Shown in pieces: positions 7,004 to 31,283 of a stretch of 64,000 nt of DNA (positions are counted from its first letter, which is position 1; each line of letters opens with the position of its first letter). The notes below the pieces were generated by a model, which searched no databases, was not told where the DNA came from, and was given only the letters and a program-made list of their open reading frames with translations. The DNA comes from a virus (taxonomy: Duplodnaviria > Caudoviricetes), in IMG/VR virus record IMGVR_UViG_3300037067_009230, positions 12,156-76,155 of that record. One strand, 5' to 3'. Made by a program: the position numbers and the translations under genes.

Positions 7004-7394
7004 TTAAGTCTTTAAAAAAGGGTTCCAGATTCTTATCATAAGCCCTGCCAGCATCTCTGGCACGTTTAGCTATCATAACATCACGCATCTGAGGTTTAAA
7101 AGTTCTTTCCAGTTTATGAACCAAAGAAGCTGATTCGGTAATGGAAGAATTATCAATTACGGGAACTTCCAAAGGGGTCTTTTTTATTTCCATATTTACA
7201 GGATTCTGTAAAGACTCCATCGGTTTTAATTCAATAGGCTTAACCTCTACCATCTTTGATTGAATAGCCATACGTATTAAATCTCGTATGATAGCTGCTA
7301 CTGAAGGAAATTGCTCAGTCTGCATCCCCTCTAATTTAGCATAATCATCCCTATCAACCATAACATGCATTAACTTAAAATTATTTTTTAACAT
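6996..7394 (-). CDS. Putative ribbon-helix-helix DNA-binding protein
   Basis: N-terminal LMHVMVD-RDDYAKLE...SVAAIIRDLIRMAI fits the beta-alpha-alpha RHH pattern. Confidence 0.5.
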   Translation of the reverse strand: MLKNNFKLMHVMVDRDDYAKLEGMQTEQFPSVAAIIRDLIRMAIQSKMVEVKPIELKPMESLQNPVNMEIKKTPLEVPVIDNSSITESASLVHKLERTFKPQMRDVMIAKRARDAGRAYDKNLEPFFKDLNG

Positions 7395-7521
7395 AATGTA
7401 ATTTATTAGATTATTAATATATTAATCATATTTAGTTTATACTATCTATATACAATATATATACCTTATATATACTAACCTTATACTATCTATATACTTT
7501 ATATATACAATCTTTATACAA

Positions 7522-7553
7522 CAAATATACAACCTTTATACTTTACATCCAAA
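7522..7553 (-). promoter_or_regulatory. Bacteroidota promoter TTTG-N20-TATATTTG
   Basis: Both boxes with consensus spacing, upstream of 6996..7394. Confidence 0.65.
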
Positions 7554-7721
7554 TAAATTGTAATTTTTTTAAAATCTCCCCAATGGTCAAGTGATCAATG
7601 GTCAATATACATATTTAATAATACACGCGCATAAATAGGTTATTTATATAATTCTTATATAAATTATATAAATATAGAAAAATTTAAAAAATAAAATTAA
7701 TAAAAAATAAAGTGCAAAATA

Positions 7722-7751
7722 TTTGCATATTTAAAAAATGTAGTATCTTTG
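7722..7751 (+). promoter_or_regulatory. Bacteroidota promoter TTTG-N18-TATCTTTG
   Basis: Both boxes, divergent from the 7522 promoter, upstream of 7786. Confidence 0.7.
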
Positions 7752-7785
7752 CATAAGATCTTAATTTACCATTAAAAAATTCATT

Positions 7786-8472
7786 ATGATAAGTAGAGAA
7801 ATTAAAATGATCATGGAAACTATTGGCCAACTTGATAACATATCCAAGGGGCTTGATATAAATAAAGAAGCTGTTAGTAAACATTCTTCCACGTTAACGG
7901 AGGTTAGGAATAAGTTATCAAAATATACTGAGCAGTATAATAACGCTGAGTATATGAAAACACTTTCTCCACCTGAACAGCAAAACCTGATGAAGAATGC
8001 CAGAGCTTTATATGAAGTTCATGAGAAACTTGTAAAGGAACTTGATTATCTTGATATGAGTAAGCAACCACCCTTTATAGTTAAAGCTATCTCAGCTCTG
8101 GATAAAGCATATCTATTCTCTCAGTACCTGTATGAAGAAGTCCTTAAACCTTGTGGAGATATTGTAATTCCTCATTTTACTTGTATTCAAGTGAAGTATA
8201 TTGATAAAGCATCTTACAAGCAGTTAGTACTATCCATAACCACAGAGTTAGAAACCTTTGCCAATGATCTTTACAATAGTCATATTCCTACAACTATAGA
8301 AACTGGTCTCCATGTAACTACAATTTACACTCATCTCATTGAATCGTATATGTGGTTCAAGAAAGAGAATGAGAGATTAAGTATAGAAGCCTTACCAGAG
8401 ATCAATAAGATTGATATACCAGAGGAAAGTGTACTTGAAGTACCTACACAACCGGAAGAAGTTAAACCCTAA
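7786..8472 (+). CDS. Hypothetical protein
   Basis: 228-aa ORF with a promoter upstream and a hairpin downstream. Confidence 0.7.
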   Translation: MISREIKMIMETIGQLDNISKGLDINKEAVSKHSSTLTEVRNKLSKYTEQYNNAEYMKTLSPPEQQNLMKNARALYEVHEKLVKELDYLDMSKQPPFIVKAISALDKAYLFSQYLYEEVLKPCGDIVIPHFTCIQVKYIDKASYKQLVLSITTELETFANDLYNSHIPTTIETGLHVTTIYTHLIESYMWFKKENERLSIEALPEINKIDIPEESVLEVPTQPEEVKP

Positions 8473-12562: not shown

Positions 12563-12883
12563 ATGTGTGACGGAAATTTAGCAATGGCAGAAACTTTGAA
12601 TAACGCAGAACCAACCCAATTGGGTATAGGTGCAGTTAGCAGTAGTGCTTTTGTTAATAGAGAAGGTATTGTTTTGAAAGTTGGTATGAAAGTAAAAGGA
12701 TTTATTACATATCAACGCTCATATATGAGAACTGGTGACAAAGACATCACTGGTACTATTGTAAGCAAACATGGGAGATTGTATGTAAATAGCGATTCTG
12801 AACCCGAAAAGAACTATCCACTTTCAAAATTTGCTCACAATTGGCTAACTCAAAATAAAATTGCATGGTTGGATGTTCTTTAG
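12563..12883 (+). CDS. Cassette-borne hypothetical protein (cassette C1)
   Basis: N-terminus QLGIGAVSS is encoded by an attC-like right arm. Body is bounded by GTTAG(12635) and CTAAC(12896). Confidence 0.65.
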   Translation: MCDGNLAMAETLNNAEPTQLGIGAVSSSAFVNREGIVLKVGMKVKGFITYQRSYMRTGDKDITGTIVSKHGRLYVNSDSEPEKNYPLSKFAHNWLTQNKIAWLDVL

Positions 12884-12959: not shown

Positions 12960-13274
12960 ATGCTTTATGACCGCTTGTTAGGCACAGTACATTTTATTAT
13001 GATTTCAATTAAAAAAGCAGATTGGACAAAGAAAAGAGAATACTCAAAAGAAATGAAACTTGATGGATTTATTTCTTCCGTAGAATTAAGCGGAATGCAC
13101 TTTACTCAGATTGATTCACTCGGAATTGATTCTCGAAAATTAGATAATCCAAAAATACTTAAACAGAAATTTGAAGCAGATAATAATTTGCGTTGTATCT
13201 GTTTGGATTACGGAGGCAGAACTAAAAAATATTGGTACAAAGTTGGCGACTTGCGGAAGTTGTATTGTGCCTAA
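12960..13274 (+). CDS. Cassette-borne hypothetical protein (cassette C2; alternative start 12999)
   Basis: Stop TAA lies inside the terminal CTAAC box. Confidence 0.65.
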   Translation: MLYDRLLGTVHFIMISIKKADWTKKREYSKEMKLDGFISSVELSGMHFTQIDSLGIDSRKLDNPKILKQKFEADNNLRCICLDYGGRTKKYWYKVGDLRKLYCA

Positions 13275-13328
13275 CTAGCTAGTAAACATACTAAAGGTAT
13301 GTTTACTATACAAAAATCAGTAAATAAA
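13273..13328 (+). repeat. 56-bp attI-like array-terminal element, copy 1
   Basis: AACTAGCTAGTAAACATAC-TAAAG-GTATGTTTACTATACAAAAATCAGTAAATAAA; three copies in the window. Confidence 0.9.
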
Positions 13329-17164: not shown

Positions 17165-17246
17165 CAGTTAACGTTAAATGTTTGTGCAGTTGGGGATTAT
17201 AAACCACTGCACTGTCAAAATAGTACTAACTTAATAAATACAGATT

Positions 17247-17549
17247 ATGAGCGAATTAGCACAAGACCCCCAATTGCATAAACATATTGTTGTGCGTAGT
17301 TATTTATCATTCTTTGCAGAAAAACACAAGTGCCACATTGATAAAATAATGGTTGGAATGGTTGGGGGTGATTTGCATGTATGGAAATACGACGAAGGCG
17401 CAGCAAATATTTTTACACAACTCGAAATCATATCCAATTTTGAGACTGATGATAGAAAATGGATTTGTCAATTATGTGGCGAATTAGTTAACGGTAGAAA
17501 TGTAACATTTGAAGAATATCACGAAGGTTGTGGTGGCCTCTGTGTATAA
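17247..17549 (+). CDS. Cassette-borne protein with C-terminal Zn-ribbon-like motif
   Basis: ATG lies in the hairpin loop; CQLCG...HEGCGGLC. Confidence 0.65.
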   Translation: MSELAQDPQLHKHIVVRSYLSFFAEKHKCHIDKIMVGMVGGDLHVWKYDEGAANIFTQLEIISNFETDDRKWICQLCGELVNGRNVTFEEYHEGCGGLCV

Positions 17550-17557
17550 TTACGCAC

Positions 17558-17613
17558 AACTAGCTAGTAAACCTACTAAAAGTATGTTTACTATACAAAA
17601 ATCAGTAAATAAA
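17558..17613 (+). repeat. 56-bp attI-like array-terminal element, copy 2
   Basis: 54/56 identical to copy 1. Confidence 0.9.
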
Positions 17614-27856: not shown

Positions 27857-27912
27857 TTTATTTACTGATTTTTGTATAGTAAACATACTAAAGGTGTGTT
27901 TACTAGCTAGTT
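27857..27912 (-). repeat. 56-bp attI-like array-terminal element, copy 3
   Basis: Matches copy 1 except for the hairpin loop, which is reverse-complemented (CTTTA vs TAAAG), and one substitution. Confidence 0.9.
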
Positions 27913-28267
27913 AGCAGCCATTTTTAAGGAAGTCTGGTAGCTTCTCATAACATTCACTTAAAAATAATGGTCTGTCTTTGTAATGCTTTCGTAACTTCAA
28001 GAGCATATTTCTTTGATATTCCACCTGTTTAACAAAGTCATTGTATTCGGTTTCTGTAAGTTCATTTTGTCCTTCTTTTCTAAAGAATTTATTGTAGAAA
28101 TAAACAAGTGAATCTTTGCACTTTTGAAGTTCCTCTTGGTCAGCAGATAATAAACGGCTGCTAACCGCATCTATACCCAATTGGGTAGTTTCTGAGGTAT
28201 TCAAATTTTTGTGTTCCATTGTTACTTTATTTTTTAAGTTGATAATTTTGTGTTTCAAATTGCCCAA
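27911..28267 (-). CDS. Cassette D8 protein (probable start 28219 in hairpin loop)
   Basis: QLGIDAVSS N-terminus comes from the hairpin arm; stop inside CTAAC. Confidence 0.65.
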   Translation of the reverse strand: MGNLKHKIINLKNKVTMEHKNLNTSETTQLGIDAVSSRLLSADQEELQKCKDSLVYFYNKFFRKEGQNELTETEYNDFVKQVEYQRNMLLKLRKHYKDRPLFLSECYEKLPDFLKNGC

Positions 28268-28319
28268 CTGGGCATAGCTGCAACACGTTAGGTTTAATAA
28301 TTACCCCTACGCACCGGGA

Positions 28320-28490
28320 CTAATTACTATCAGGATCGTATGTTTTATATTTCCATCCTAACCATGCCATTCGTCCAAATTTCTTATCCAGTTCTAAATC
28401 AATGTGGGCCATTGACCAATTCTTACTGATTTCAAATTCCTCTGATGACCCATTTTCTAATTCTACAATTATTGTTCTCATTTGTCGCAT
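28320..28490 (-). CDS. Cassette D7 protein (56 aa, not in ORF track)
   Basis: Translated by hand: MRQMRTIIVELENGSSEEF...WLGWKYKTYDPDSN. Confidence 0.55.
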   Translation of the reverse strand: MRQMRTIIVELENGSSEEFEISKNWSMAHIDLELDKKFGRMAWLGWKYKTYDPDSN

Positions 28491-28577
28491 AATTAATTTC
28501 GTTATCTGATCTCTTCTGTAATTACTGAAATCTAACTACGTGTAAAATTCATTGAAACGAAATTTTACACCTGTCCG

Positions 28578-28874
28578 TTAGCAAACATGCCGATAGAGGT
28601 ACCCACTTTTATGAGCGCGTTCATCAACTTGTTGCATTAGTTCTTTTGCTGATTCACTTCCGTAAGGTCTGCGATATTTGACTTCTTCTGTGCCGTCTGG
28701 CCACTTTTGCACAATTTCAGTAGTTACAAAGGCACGATTTGCTAACAATGTATTTACGCCATTGGCGGTTACATTCTCGCTGGATAAGTTATCGGTTTTC
28801 ATATATTCGTTTTTACGTTTAAAATTTGTACTAATTAATCGCCAACAGGCGCAAATACTCACCGTTAGCGGCAA
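28578..28874 (-). CDS. Cassette D6 protein (probable start 28802)
   Basis: Start in hairpin loop; stop inside CTAAC. Confidence 0.6.
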   Translation of the reverse strand: MPLTVSICACWRLISTNFKRKNEYMKTDNLSSENVTANGVNTLLANRAFVTTEIVQKWPDGTEEVKYRRPYGSESAKELMQQVDERAHKSGYLYRHVC

Positions 28875-29167
28875 TTAAGCGATTTTATGTACTCATTAGC
28901 AACATAACTTGCTTTGCATTCATCAAACTCATTAAGTGTTGATTTGTACCATATCAAAAAATCGCTTAACAGTTCGCTTTGCCCGCTAACATCAGGTATA
29001 GTTAATTGCCTTTGCTCCGATTCATACCCGTTCGCTAAGTGCTCAGAATATTCGGTCATTAACCTAATAACAGTATCATAACTAAATGCTGTTCCTTCTT
29101 CTTGTCCGTCTGGGTAACGAACTTTCTGTGTGTACCCTTTTTCAAATAAAAATTGATGTGCTTTCAT
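28865..29167 (-). CDS. Cassette D5 protein; N-terminal ~59 aa encoded within a giant attC-like hairpin
   Basis: QLTIPDVS marks the GTT junction; stop inside CTAAC. Confidence 0.65.
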   Translation of the reverse strand: MKAHQFLFEKGYTQKVRYPDGQEEGTAFSYDTVIRLMTEYSEHLANGYESEQRQLTIPDVSGQSELLSDFLIWYKSTLNEFDECKASYVANEYIKSLNCR

Positions 29168-29275
29168 AATTCGCTCACTATTTAAGTTATTAAAGTTTAT
29201 TACTCTTATTAAGGTTAGTAGTAATTTGACAGAGGCAACTAACCATACCTGTGTTCGTTAGGCACAATAAAAAGA

Positions 29276-29512
29276 TTACGGTGTATCTCTGAAATAAGCA
29301 GTTGTGATATGATATTTTGCTTGTTCATCTTTTGGTAGTTTATGAATTTCGTCCATAATCCTATTATACATCTCCACCTTTTTAATCTTATACTGTTTAA
29401 GTTCTTTATACCATTTTATGGCGAATGGTAGTTTAGTTATCCACCCAATTAAAATGCCTATTGCTAAAATAATACATGTACTCATATTATTAAGATTTAC
29501 TGTGCCTAACAC
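29276..29512 (-). CDS. Cassette D4 membrane-anchored protein (probable start 29485)
   Basis: Hydrophobic N-terminus CIILAIGILIGW. Confidence 0.6.
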   Translation of the reverse strand: MLGTVNLNNMSTCIILAIGILIGWITKLPFAIKWYKELKQYKIKKVEMYNRIMDEIHKLPKDEQAKYHITTAYFRDTP

Positions 29513-29638
29513 ATGCTATAAAAAATAGCGGTTTTAGTAGTTTGCACAAGGTTTATACTTCTATTTAATTTCACTGTATTTTGATAAATTTGTTCTTCTA
29601 TTTCCGCTACTTTTCATAGCATCAACGTTAGGGTGCAT

Positions 29639-29977
29639 TTAAAAATCCTTACACCAACTATCCAACTGAAAGGATAGACTGTCATATACTATTGTTTTAT
29701 TTGGTAACTTTCGCCAATTCCAATAACCTCGTGGATATTCTTCTGTTGCAATAAATTTAATTTGCTTTTTGATTAATCCAAACAAAATAGGTTGTTCGCA
29801 AGTCAAAATGATGTTACCCTTTTCGTTTGTTTCTTTTTTAATTGCTTTCATAAAAATTGAATAAAAACGCACCCTAACAATGTATATAGCAAATTGGGGG
29901 TGTCGTTCCAACTTGTATATTTGTGCTGTTAATTTACTTCTGTGTGGCTCGATAGGGTAGCACATTTTAATCCCCAA
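29639..29977 (-). CDS. Cassette D3 protein (alternative start 29851)
   Basis: Body bounded by gttagggtgc / gcaccctaac. Confidence 0.6.
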   Translation of the reverse strand: MGIKMCYPIEPHRSKLTAQIYKLERHPQFAIYIVRVRFYSIFMKAIKKETNEKGNIILTCEQPILFGLIKKQIKFIATEEYPRGYWNWRKLPNKTIVYDSLSFQLDSWCKDF

Positions 29978-30021
29978 CTTGCCATATACTTAACGTTAGT
30001 TGCAAGGCTAAGTCCATGCAT

Positions 30022-30852
30022 TTAATCAACATTTGTGGGTAAATCCGTAAAAGAAAAAAGCCCACGCTCTTTTGCTTTTTCAAAGCAATTAGGGTTAATG
30101 TCACAACCAATAAAACTTCGGTTTAAGTCTTTACAAACTTCTGCTGTTGTAAAACTACCTGAATAAAAGTCCGCAACTAAATCACCTTCATTGCTACTTG
30201 CTTTAATAATTCGTTCAATTAATGATTTTGGTTTTTGGGTATCATACCCAAGTCTTTCAGAGTTAGTCGGCCCTAAATTATTCAATTCCCAAACATCATC
30301 AATAGGTGTTGAATCTTGTATTTTATAAACAACATCCCCATTTTCATCCCTTTTCATTACCTTTTTGCCATCTTTCACATCTACCTTATTTTTCTTTCTT
30401 GGTGTTTCTAACGGTAATCTTAATTCATTAAATATTATTTTGTCGGTTTTACCATAAAATATAAGTATATCGTGGTTTTTAGCAAACGCCTTTTGTTTTA
30501 TACTCCATTTATTGTAACTCCAAATAACCTCATTCACAAAATTATCATACCCAAATATATCATCCATAATACACCGCATCCAATGGTTTATTTTTGTGTC
30601 CATTTGTAGGTAAATGCTTCCTGTTGGTTTTAATATCCTGTGCATTTCTTTTATTCGTGGTATGTAGTGGCTTTCAATTTCGCTTCGTATTGGCTTTATA
30701 TCTTGATAGTCTGCAAATCTTCTACCAGTACCATAGAGTATATCACAATAAATTAAATCAATCGTGTTGTCTTTAATTTCTGCCATCAATTCTAAATTGT
30801 CGCAAATTCTAAGGTCTAAAAACCCCTCCCCATTTTTTTCTTTTACTCTCAT
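30022..30852 (-). CDS. N4/N6 DNA methyltransferase (beta class), cassette D2
   Basis: Motif IV variant YCDILYGTG, TQKPKSLIERII, motif I DFYSGSFTT, FIGCDIN. Confidence 0.85.
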   Translation of the reverse strand: MRVKEKNGEGFLDLRICDNLELMAEIKDNTIDLIYCDILYGTGRRFADYQDIKPIRSEIESHYIPRIKEMHRILKPTGSIYLQMDTKINHWMRCIMDDIFGYDNFVNEVIWSYNKWSIKQKAFAKNHDILIFYGKTDKIIFNELRLPLETPRKKNKVDVKDGKKVMKRDENGDVVYKIQDSTPIDDVWELNNLGPTNSERLGYDTQKPKSLIERIIKASSNEGDLVADFYSGSFTTAEVCKDLNRSFIGCDINPNCFEKAKERGLFSFTDLPTNVD

Positions 30853-31022
30853 TCGTTCATTTAATTAAGTTTCTACTAATTTTACCGCCCAGCATATAAC
30901 AATGTATATAATTTATAGGCAGTTATGTTAATAATTCAATCTTTATTTCTCGTTTAAAGTATGTAGGTAACTCAAAATTCGTAGCTCGAAATGCCTACAA
31001 ATCATATACAAACCGTTAGCAC

Positions 31023-31262
31023 CTATTTTAAAATGAATGACTGACAATCATCACATATAAAACTATGAGCATAAACAGATTTTAATTCGCACCATGAGCA
31101 ATGACCATATGTGGCACCCGTATAGTATTTACAGTTCCCGTATTTATAAAAAACAGGTGCTAACACAGGCTCAACTGCAATAGCTGGAGAAGTATGTTGC
31201 GTAGGTCTTACTCTTTTTGCCATGTTCGTTGTATTTTGATAATTAAGTATTTCAAATTCCAC
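31023..31262 (-). CDS. Cassette D1 small Cys-rich protein (probable start 31223)
   Basis: CKYY...HCSWC...ICDDC; start in hairpin loop. Confidence 0.6.
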   Translation of the reverse strand: MEFEILNYQNTTNMAKRVRPTQHTSPAIAVEPVLAPVFYKYGNCKYYTGATYGHCSWCELKSVYAHSFICDDCQSFILK

Positions 31263-31283
31263 TACATGCGGTTAGCATCAACG

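Follow-up and report, generated by a model that had tools for sequence, protein, structure and literature searches.

A conserved 276-nt hairpin with a start codon and 60 codons inside it, in a putatively integron-like cassette array of a virulent-type phage

The Phage Genome and Its Hairpin Array

The virus record is a single contig of 76,155 bp with an estimated completeness of 92% (CheckV), and the 64-kb stretch taken from it for analysis, hereafter the window (64,000 nt), has a G+C content of ~33%. The genome carries structural genes as well as genes for a family A DNA polymerase, helicases, RNase H, an amidase, SbcCD-like proteins, and a PDDEXK nuclease. Profile searches of this 76-kb, 92% complete genome identified no tyrosine recombinase, serine recombinase, or Y1 transposase; PF00589 had no match in the 76-kb genome, nor did PF01797 (Y1 transposase) have any in the phage. 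The closest relatives of the DNA methyltransferase encoded in the window come from Flavobacterium, Cellulophaga, and Polaribacter phages, and the methyltransferase gene is ~78% identical to that of phage P12002L over the aligned pieces, which cover 12% of the 3.9-kb query. The phage is of the virulent type, with a host probably among the Bacteroidota.

Between DUF7768/sbcD-like genes and an sbcC-like gene, the minus strand carries an array (27897–31276) in which eight hairpins of 118, 125, 126, 128, 276, 129, 50, and 133 nt alternate with eight bodies, one of which encodes an N6_N4 DNA methyltransferase. The array ends in the sequence CTAACTAGCTAGTAAACA, which is referred to as the anchor. GTTAG[CG] sites change strand 15 times at 27910–31276, and parsing into eight hairpins required that GTTAT, GTTAGA, and ACTAAC cores also be admitted. 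With GTTAT and ACTAAC cores admitted, a single hairpin of 1148 nt around the methyltransferase gene was rejected in favor of two ordinary hairpins. GTTAGG at 28357–28362, in the following ORF, was likewise considered as a hairpin core and found to be incidental, the true element being a 50-nt hairpin of the same type at 28533–28582 (minus strand; CTAAC, ggaca, GGTGTAAAATT...AATTTTACAC, gta, GTTAGA). In folds of the array, the hairpins close from core to core.

The bodies of the array begin with GTTA, finish with TAAC, and have ends that are complementary over 10–15 nt past the core, which is the signature expected of a cassette that formerly existed as a circle containing a complete hairpin site. 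Upstream of the 276-nt hairpin, unit c3 (29257–29510, minus strand) has an ORF of its own (69 aa; 29276–29485) and the complementary ends GTTAGGCACAGTAAA / TTTATTGTGCCTAAC. The downstream unit, body c4 (28864–28990, minus strand; 127 nt), consists of 40 codons with no in-frame ATG, has complementary ends (GTTAGCGGGCAA..TTAAGCGATTTT / AAAATCGCTTAATTGCCGCTAAC), and has no homologue. The start codon of the following gene lies within the hairpin in four of the eight array hairpins and in a plus-strand hairpin at 17.17–17.30 kb, so that the 276-nt element represents the extreme of a common habit. Stop codons in the array often coincide with the TAA of CTAAC.

The array contains 26 promoter-like sites, compared to 17.9 ± 5.1 in shuffled sequences, which is no excess of sigma-70 sites, and one terminator-like site, compared to 2.2 in shuffles. 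A scan of the array with Rfam, which does not include the attC covariance model, yielded no family match.

The 276-nt Hairpin and the Protein That It Encodes

On the minus, gene-sense strand, the 276-nt hairpin is composed, in order, of CCTAAC, a 5-nt spacer, CAGGTATGGTTAGTTGCC, the interior, GGCAATTAACTATACCTG, a 2-nt spacer, and GTTAGC. TAAC is the conserved portion of the R''-like 5' core CCTAAC (29257–29262), and the base that precedes it goes with the upstream unit. The L''-like 5' arm (29230–29251; core CAGGTATGGTTAGTTGCC) lies 5 nt past this core and is non-coding. The loop then contains a conserved non-coding leader (29168–29229; alignment A6), with an inner CTAAC at 29218–29214 and an ACGA/GAGCGA-type motif directly before the ATG, followed by an N-terminal module of type A (MKAHQFLFEKGYTQKVRYPDG...), whose first ~51 codons, from the start codon on (29015–29167), fill the interior up to the 22-nt 3' arm. 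This L'-like 3' arm (28993–29014; core GGCAATTAACTATACCTG) is coding (QRQLTIPD) and ends 2 nt before the R'-like 3' core GTTAGC (28985–28990), which forms codons V60 and S61 and in which the similarity of relatives stops after GTTA (alignments A3 and A7).

The arms were recovered by a repeat search as 22-nt segments (28993–29014 and 29230–29251) that are 86% complementary and have 215 nt between them. Their 18-nt cores (29251–29234 and 29010–28993) pair on the minus strand without interruption and with two G·T wobbles only, as the initial annotation of this 276-bp site had described. The long-range stem is found in the minimum-free-energy and centroid folds alike, and the z-score of the fold is −4.3 for the sense RNA, with values of −2.2 and −1.5 for the sense and antisense ssDNA, respectively. 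When the 76-kb genome was scanned under strict criteria (TAAC and GTTA separated by 44–334 nt, and an unbroken stem of 14 bp or more located no more than 7 nt from each core), four sites were found, all on the minus strand in the array and the 276-nt element among them; shuffled controls gave three sites in 20 genomes, or 0.15 per genome. Given that inverted repeats of similar nominal length are frequent in the AT-rich window (36 pairs), the significance of the hairpin rests on its core-adjacent geometry, the context of the array, and its conservation in relatives.

A second stem, predicted as nested in the 276-nt loop, was rejected, as it is not conserved in the related locus L001. The 5' arm contains GTTAG (29240–29244, minus strand), which pairs with TTAAC of the 3' arm, and the leader contains CTAAC (29214–29218, minus strand) 21 nt past this GTTAG; both are kept in most relatives. 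They may represent inner boxes similar to 2L/2R of attC, or a vestigial empty unit.

An ORF of 100 aa (28865–29167, minus strand) runs through the interior, the 3' arm, the core, and the downstream unit. It begins with the ATG at 29167, has ~52 codons before the 3' arm, and uses GTT-AGC as codons 60–61; the 3' arm and core encode QRQLTIPDV-S, the frame remains open for 40 more codons into the next unit, and the TAA stop codon sits in the next GCTAAC. The initial annotation, which had described a leader, an ATG, and ~52 codons fused in frame through the arm and GTT-AGC to the body, is therefore correct in this respect, as it is in claiming that more than half of the protein (i.e., the first 60 of 100 codons) is encoded by the hairpin site. 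Pfam and PHROG scans of the small ORFs of the array, including that of the 100-aa protein, assigned no family. The predicted structure of the protein is of low confidence (pLDDT 59.6) and too poor for a structure search. A profile of residues 1–45 of P0001 matches short GYTQKV.YPDG-like repeats that occur in 3–21 copies in very large proteins, and it also matches single copies at varied positions in other small proteins, so the N-terminal module may be derived from a common repeat fold.

A Conserved Scaffold with Exchanged Modules

Four relatives were found with the 100-aa protein as query, and all of them share residues 1–60 and then diverge. Residues 1–60 (N-type A) are joined to four unrelated C-parts, namely those of the window, of P0002/P0003, of P0004, and of P0005, and in all four the divergence sets in precisely behind the GTT codon (V60) of the core. 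At the DNA level, identity to the window is 70–96% strictly from CTAAC to GTTA in L001, L002/L003, and L004/L005, and falls to background just outside. The downstream bodies of L001 (GTTATACGCAGGC / GCTTGCGTATAAC) and L004 (GTTAGCAAATCGGTTT / AAACTGTTTGCTAAC) have complementary ends of their own, and body ends are likewise complementary in L001, L005, L008, L009, L012, L013, and L014.

With residues 60–100 as the sole query, no homologue was found besides the window's own protein, which makes a reciprocal test impossible on the C-part of the window. The reciprocal case is found among the relatives: L005 and L011 share the body SKSVCDCPENC... at 96% identity, and it stands behind N-type A in the former and behind an unrelated N-type in the latter. 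The alignment of these two loci (A8) is a mosaic: the leader is ~85–90% identical, the interior is unrelated, the 3' arm and body are 96% identical up to the closing CTAAC, and the sequences beyond are unrelated. The two halves of such proteins are not always found together as one unit, and each occurs with other partners. Of the proposal in the initial annotation that N- and C-terminal modules are swapped by mis-paired recombination, the exchange at the V-S junction is supported, and mis-pairing is not needed, as ordinary exchange at the core suffices.

Public collections were also searched for the exact 24-nt 3' arm plus core or the 18-nt 5' arm, which yielded eight further viral loci and two contigs from metagenome-assembled genomes (MAGs). 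The 24-nt string GGCAATTAACTATACCTGATGTTA is exact in the window, L001, L005, six viral contigs, and two MAG contigs, and the 5' arm is identical or nearly so in at least seven of the ten rows of alignment A6, with that of L013 partly different. All the scaffold loci conserve the 5' arm, the ~65-nt leader, and the 3' arm, but not the coding interior or the body (alignments A6 and A7), so that 13 scaffold contigs display 10 N-types and 12 C-types. The variable coding segment comprises ~38–60 codons and is followed by the constant peptide ..QLTIPDV from the 3' arm and core; hairpin lengths in the relatives range from 221 to ~340 nt. Hairpin types are not syntenic, since an a4-type precedes an a2-type in L005 and the reverse order is found in the window. 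Searches that started from SbcC or from the recombinase, made to find related viral loci, returned nothing or the query alone.

Frame 0 is open through the body at 10 of 11 junctions, compared to ~13% expected by chance at a stop-trinucleotide frequency of 0.069. In L010, the frame stops two codons after the junction, and fusion is therefore usual and not obligatory. Several of the C-bodies are CxxC...CxxC modules that have no start codon of their own.

The coding interior is also exchanged between arms that are otherwise nearly identical, which the initial annotation had not foreseen. Since this replacement falls between the ATG and the 3' arm, in a stretch that lacks a core motif, at least this exchange requires another mechanism, probably homologous recombination.

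A direct repeat of ~12 nt, ATACGAGTGAT, occurs soon after the 5' arm and again immediately before the 3' arm in L009, L012, L014, L018, and others, where its copies bracket the leader and the variable interior; in the window the copies are degenerate (29195–29210 and 29015–29030). ACGA-type motifs related to ATACGAGTGAT stand before the start codons in ordinary hairpins. The repeat may be a footprint of the origin of the giant loop, or an initiation-type motif that is used twice. The 24-nt arm string was also noticed on small scaffolds of two MAGs, L017 (labeled Methanolobus) and L018 (labeled Bacteroidota). The archaeal label of L017 probably arose when a phage fragment was wrongly binned, and the label of L018 fits the presumed host range.

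Position of the Crossover and Selection on the Structure

Across the relatives, only TAAC/GTTA is constant in the core. The nucleotide following GTTA pairs up with the one that precedes TAAC at the other end of its body (G..C, T..A, and A..T in different bodies) and disagrees with the 5' core of the hairpin itself, which is CTAAC, ATAAC, or degenerate. That the post-GTTA base tracks the far end of the body puts the point of exchange inside the 4-nt core or at its edge, comparable to G|TT in integrons. With the crossover core in codon 60, any downstream unit would be read in frame as the C-terminal part.

In L002 and in the second copy of L008 (L008b), the arms differ in sequence and their pairing is kept, i.e., they covary. 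A column-wise count of covariation on alignment A3 gave no double changes, as the sole divergent sequence has an arm indel, and the arms were then analyzed sequence by sequence. Over 14 hairpins, wobbles with G in the 5' arm and T in the 3' arm number 36, versus 5 of the opposite kind. The sense strand is the better folder in 12 of the 14, and the plus-strand array likewise folds on its own sense strand. The compensatory arms, the wobble bias, and the restriction of the hairpins to the sense strand all indicate that the hairpin structure is under selection.

A Candidate Recombinase in Related Phages

In the 48-kb phage L008, a 267-aa Xer-like tyrosine recombinase (7239–8039) is encoded directly after the last CTAAC, 600 nt after the array. 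A truncated homologue of this recombinase, 46% identical over the last 142 residues and with one stop, abuts hairpins in the 640-kb jumbo phage L019 (1504–1914). The best NCBIfam models for the L008 recombinase are those of XerA, XerD, and the integron-integrase subfamily, all of which score below their cut-offs (e.g., 131.6 bits for TIGR02249, the cut-off of which is 265). Xer-like recombinases of the L008 type are the best candidate for the enzyme, which would act in trans for the present phage.

Comparison with Known Systems

Virulent phages, among them Polaribacter phage P12002L, can carry clusters of attC sites that lack an integrase (CALIN; Qi et al., 2023; PMC9892861), and one attC site of P12002L was recombined by IntI1 (PMC9892861). 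Similar to the CALIN of P12002L, the array described here has small accessory genes and an N6_N4 DNA methyltransferase gene between imperfect ..TAAC/GTTA.. hairpins and has no integrase, and P12002L has CTAAC...GTTAG hairpins of the same type beside methyltransferases homologous to that of the window. A CALIN is defined by the absence of an integrase around two or more attC-type sites that lie within a few kb; the array may be one, with eight hairpins of like build in 3.4 kb and no integrase, its sites having been recognized by their structure and not by a formal attC model. In contrast to the P12002L sites, which are of ordinary attC size and located between genes, the element here is 276 nt long and holds a start codon and 60 codons, its crossover core lies within a reading frame, and its folding strand is the gene-sense strand. 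The type of array is thus already known from the literature; what is new is the conserved coding-loop scaffold and the in-frame combinatorial joining.

Translation across integron sites is also known. ORF-11 and ORF-18 of attI1, short ORFs within attC, and fused cassettes are all examples, and about one-fifth of integron cassettes have no initiation region of their own (PMC8876359). The ORF-11 and ORF-18 peptides have 11 and 18 residues, respectively, and act by translational coupling, while ORF-17 (17 residues) stays outside the cassette (PMC8876359). As in these integrons, the recombination site here would provide a translation start that is read across the crossover into the next cassette; unlike in ORF-11/ORF-18 coupling, a domain-sized segment of 60 residues is fused to the cassette product.

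The usual length of attC is ~57–141 bp, with a short and variable terminal loop. The 276-nt element is about twice as long as the maximal attC, and six of the eight hairpins in the array are 118–133 nt. It shares with integron attC the R''-L''...L'-R' layout, and the start of the cassette is complementary to the box before its own hairpin. Of the outer boxes, R'' (GCCTAAC) fits RYYYAAC, and R' (GTTAGCG) fits only the GTTRR portion of GTTRRRY. The inner inverted repeats form a stem of 18–22 bp with two G·T wobbles, and the circular-permutation signature is found in c3 (GTTAGGCACAGTAAA / TTTATTGTGCCTAAC), in c4, and in the bodies of the relatives. Different from integron attC are the absence of extrahelical bases, the spacers of 5 versus 2 nt, the conserved G·T wobbles, and the lack of an IntI. 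The description of the site as attC-like in the initial annotation thus holds for the stem and the circular-permutation signature, but not for the length, extrahelical bases, spacer symmetry, or integrase, and the 276-nt element is at most a putative member of the integron attC family.

The PeSLs (promoter-early stem-loops) of T4-type phages are regulatory stem-loop motifs that flank ORFan genes and have been proposed as linkers for shuffling (Arbiol et al., 2010, PMC2839356; Comeau et al., 2014, PMC4122927). The hairpins described here resemble them as conserved structured motifs beside small ORFans in hyperplastic regions of virulent phages, with G-T pairs in the stem and modular shuffling, possibly through mini-circles. 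PeSLs are, however, short, local, GC-rich stem-loops that are coupled to sigma-70 promoters and recombine by homology, whereas the stems here are of 18–22 bp and span 50–340 nt, the TAAC/GTTA closure is fixed, the bodies have complementary ends, and the junction lies inside a coding sequence. The promoter/stem-loop-terminator organization of PeSLs was not found, the stems being long-range and not local.

Interpretation

Taken with some reserve, the reading that we favor is that the 276-nt element is a structured boundary of an integron-like cassette array in a virulent-type phage, probably of Bacteroidota, and belongs to a large-loop subfamily that supplies the start codon and N-terminus across the crossover core. 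Exchange would take place as at the attC sites of integrons, through site-specific recombination of a single strand in its folded form. The recombinase would come in trans from the host or from a phage infecting the same cell, and the candidate is a small Xer-like tyrosine recombinase such as those beside related arrays. The oversized loop would have arisen from a leader-plus-N-terminus segment lodged in an ordinary hairpin of ~125 nt; deletion between the copies of ATACGAGTGAT would leave a hairpin of ordinary size, which is what suggests that the giant form may be an ordinary site with a lodged segment. The discrete units, the complementarity of the body ends, the core-delimited exchange, and the precedent all fit the logic of integrons. 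Against this reading, the phage has no recombinase, and the length, extrahelical bases, and spacer symmetry of attC are not matched. The interior is swapped without a core motif, and the same hairpin is found between different units on both sides, which would not be predicted from a strict cassette of a body plus its attC.

Also against the integron-like reading, the folding strand is the mRNA strand in two arrays of opposite orientation, and the fold is stronger as RNA than as DNA. These observations fit the main alternative, which we regard as less likely, namely that the hairpin acts in the mRNA. In that case, the stem formed by the 5' UTR and codons 52–59 would enclose the ribosome-loading region together with the N-terminal coding part and tune translation or stability for each small gene, and the arms and leader would serve solely as short homology linkers for module shuffling by general homologous recombination between co-infecting phages, in the manner proposed for PeSLs (PMC2839356). 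In arrays of either orientation, the wobbles are G·U-compatible on the sense strand, the z-score is −4.3 for the RNA versus −2.2 for the sense ssDNA, start codons are located in the loops of four of the eight hairpins, and stops often fall in the TAA of CTAAC. The swap of the interior between conserved leader and arm, where the core motif is absent, is consistent with homologous recombination, as is the presence of SbcCD-like and PDDEXK nuclease genes in a phage that has no site-specific recombinase. An mRNA hairpin would not, however, explain the complementary ends of 10–15 nt that each body has abutting a core of 4–5 nt, nor the covariation of the post-GTTA base with the far end of the body, and a core of 5 nt is too short for homologous recombination. 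The sigma-70 promoter and terminator signals are within the shuffled expectation, Rfam gave no match, and homologous tyrosine recombinases adjoin such arrays in two other phages. The mRNA-hairpin and site-specific readings may also be true together, and if the RNA reading is true, the element would be a long-range structure of the mRNA that is conserved and also serves as a linker for recombination.

It is improbable that the hairpins are the ends of single-strand-transposing units, IS200/IS605-like or MITE-like, cut by an HUH/Y1 transposase at a short target such as TAAC. The array hairpins resemble the ends of IS200/IS605 elements in being imperfect and strand-specific, in their conserved mismatches, and in the short motif conserved beside them, and in metagenome contigs the hairpins are many-fold more abundant than the bodies. 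On the other hand, the phage lacks a Y1 transposase, the elements stand head to tail in regions of accessory genes and are not scattered, and both of their cores are symmetric, as opposed to the subterminal hairpins of IS200/IS605, which differ between its left and right ends. A two-domain gene family of the ordinary, fast-evolving kind, whose linker is conserved and in which the complementarity between upstream region and linker is incidental, could draw on the frequency of similar inverted repeats in this AT-rich genome and on the lack of homologues for the C-terminal 40 residues, but the covariation and the mosaic alignments (A3, A7, and A8) largely refute this reading, and it is very improbable, given that synonymous positions of the 3' arm are invariant where the flanking coding sequence is unalignable, that the arms covary and the non-coding leader is conserved, and that the element stands in register among eight hairpins of like build.

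We tentatively hypothesize that these phages run a DNA-level system similar to exon shuffling, a possibility that we would put somewhat below even, in which oversized recombination hairpins of one family lie in frame within genes, and their unchanging parts, i.e., the arms, the leader, and the QLTIPDV linker, form a scaffold that freely joins variable N-segments to variable C-units, often zinc-ribbon-like, and yields combinatorial small two-module proteins, for instance for host takeover or anti-defense. Integron-type cassettes have been understood as movers of whole genes, with the site as non-coding punctuation; here the site carries the start codon and a domain-sized coding segment, the crossover lies inside a codon, and natural relatives display the combinatorial products that would be expected. 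Should the exchange be site-specific, it would be a viral mechanism for building proteins from modules, and it would widen the range of folded-DNA recombination sites to one of twice the accepted size with a coding loop. The attC length limits of current integron finders would cause such sites to be missed. The integron-like systems of Bacteroidota phages are poorly understood, and the element also provides a testable substrate for them, with two arms, a 4-nt core, and a candidate Xer-like enzyme.

Other Hairpins, Anchors, and Metagenome Depth

In four metagenome runs, the summed contig depth was 10–30 times higher over ordinary hairpins than over bodies (e.g., 533 versus ~15 in X1). The hairpins with high depth are at 29812–29968, 29498–29654, and 28085–28398; unitigs break there, and the sequences are common to many genomes in the samples. 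The interior of the 276-nt element was at baseline depth. The metagenome joints, which were short-sided and came from contigs only, are unreliable and cannot show excision. Neither a joint nor a circle was seen at the 276-nt element, which does not count against their existence.

The anchor CTAACTAGCTAGTAAACA, with the palindrome CTAGCTAG, has exact copies at 13271–13288 (plus strand) and 27897–27914 (minus strand), i.e., two versus zero expected, and terminates, in the sense direction, both arrays that were checked for the exact string. A third, slightly altered copy (ACAACTAGCTAGTAAACC) near 17559–17580 (plus strand) closes the unit at 17.2–17.55 kb. It is possible that the anchor is an attI-like or protein-binding site.

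The plus-strand hairpin at 17170–17300 (TTAAC...ATGTTTGTGCAGTTGGGG / CCCCAATTGCATAAACAT...GTTGT), which has the start codon in its loop, is closely related to a hairpin in the complete phage L010 (325–435) that has a different body behind it, and is a candidate for a second site of module exchange. In hairpin a7, the 3' arm and core (28161–28195, minus strand) encode ..TQLGIDAVSS. The a7 arm recurs without its 5' partner at 12609–12640 (plus strand), in an ORF at 12563–12883 (..TQLGIGAVSS), and the two proteins are unrelated past the core. The two copies are a case, within one genome, of an arm-encoded peptide placed on different bodies.
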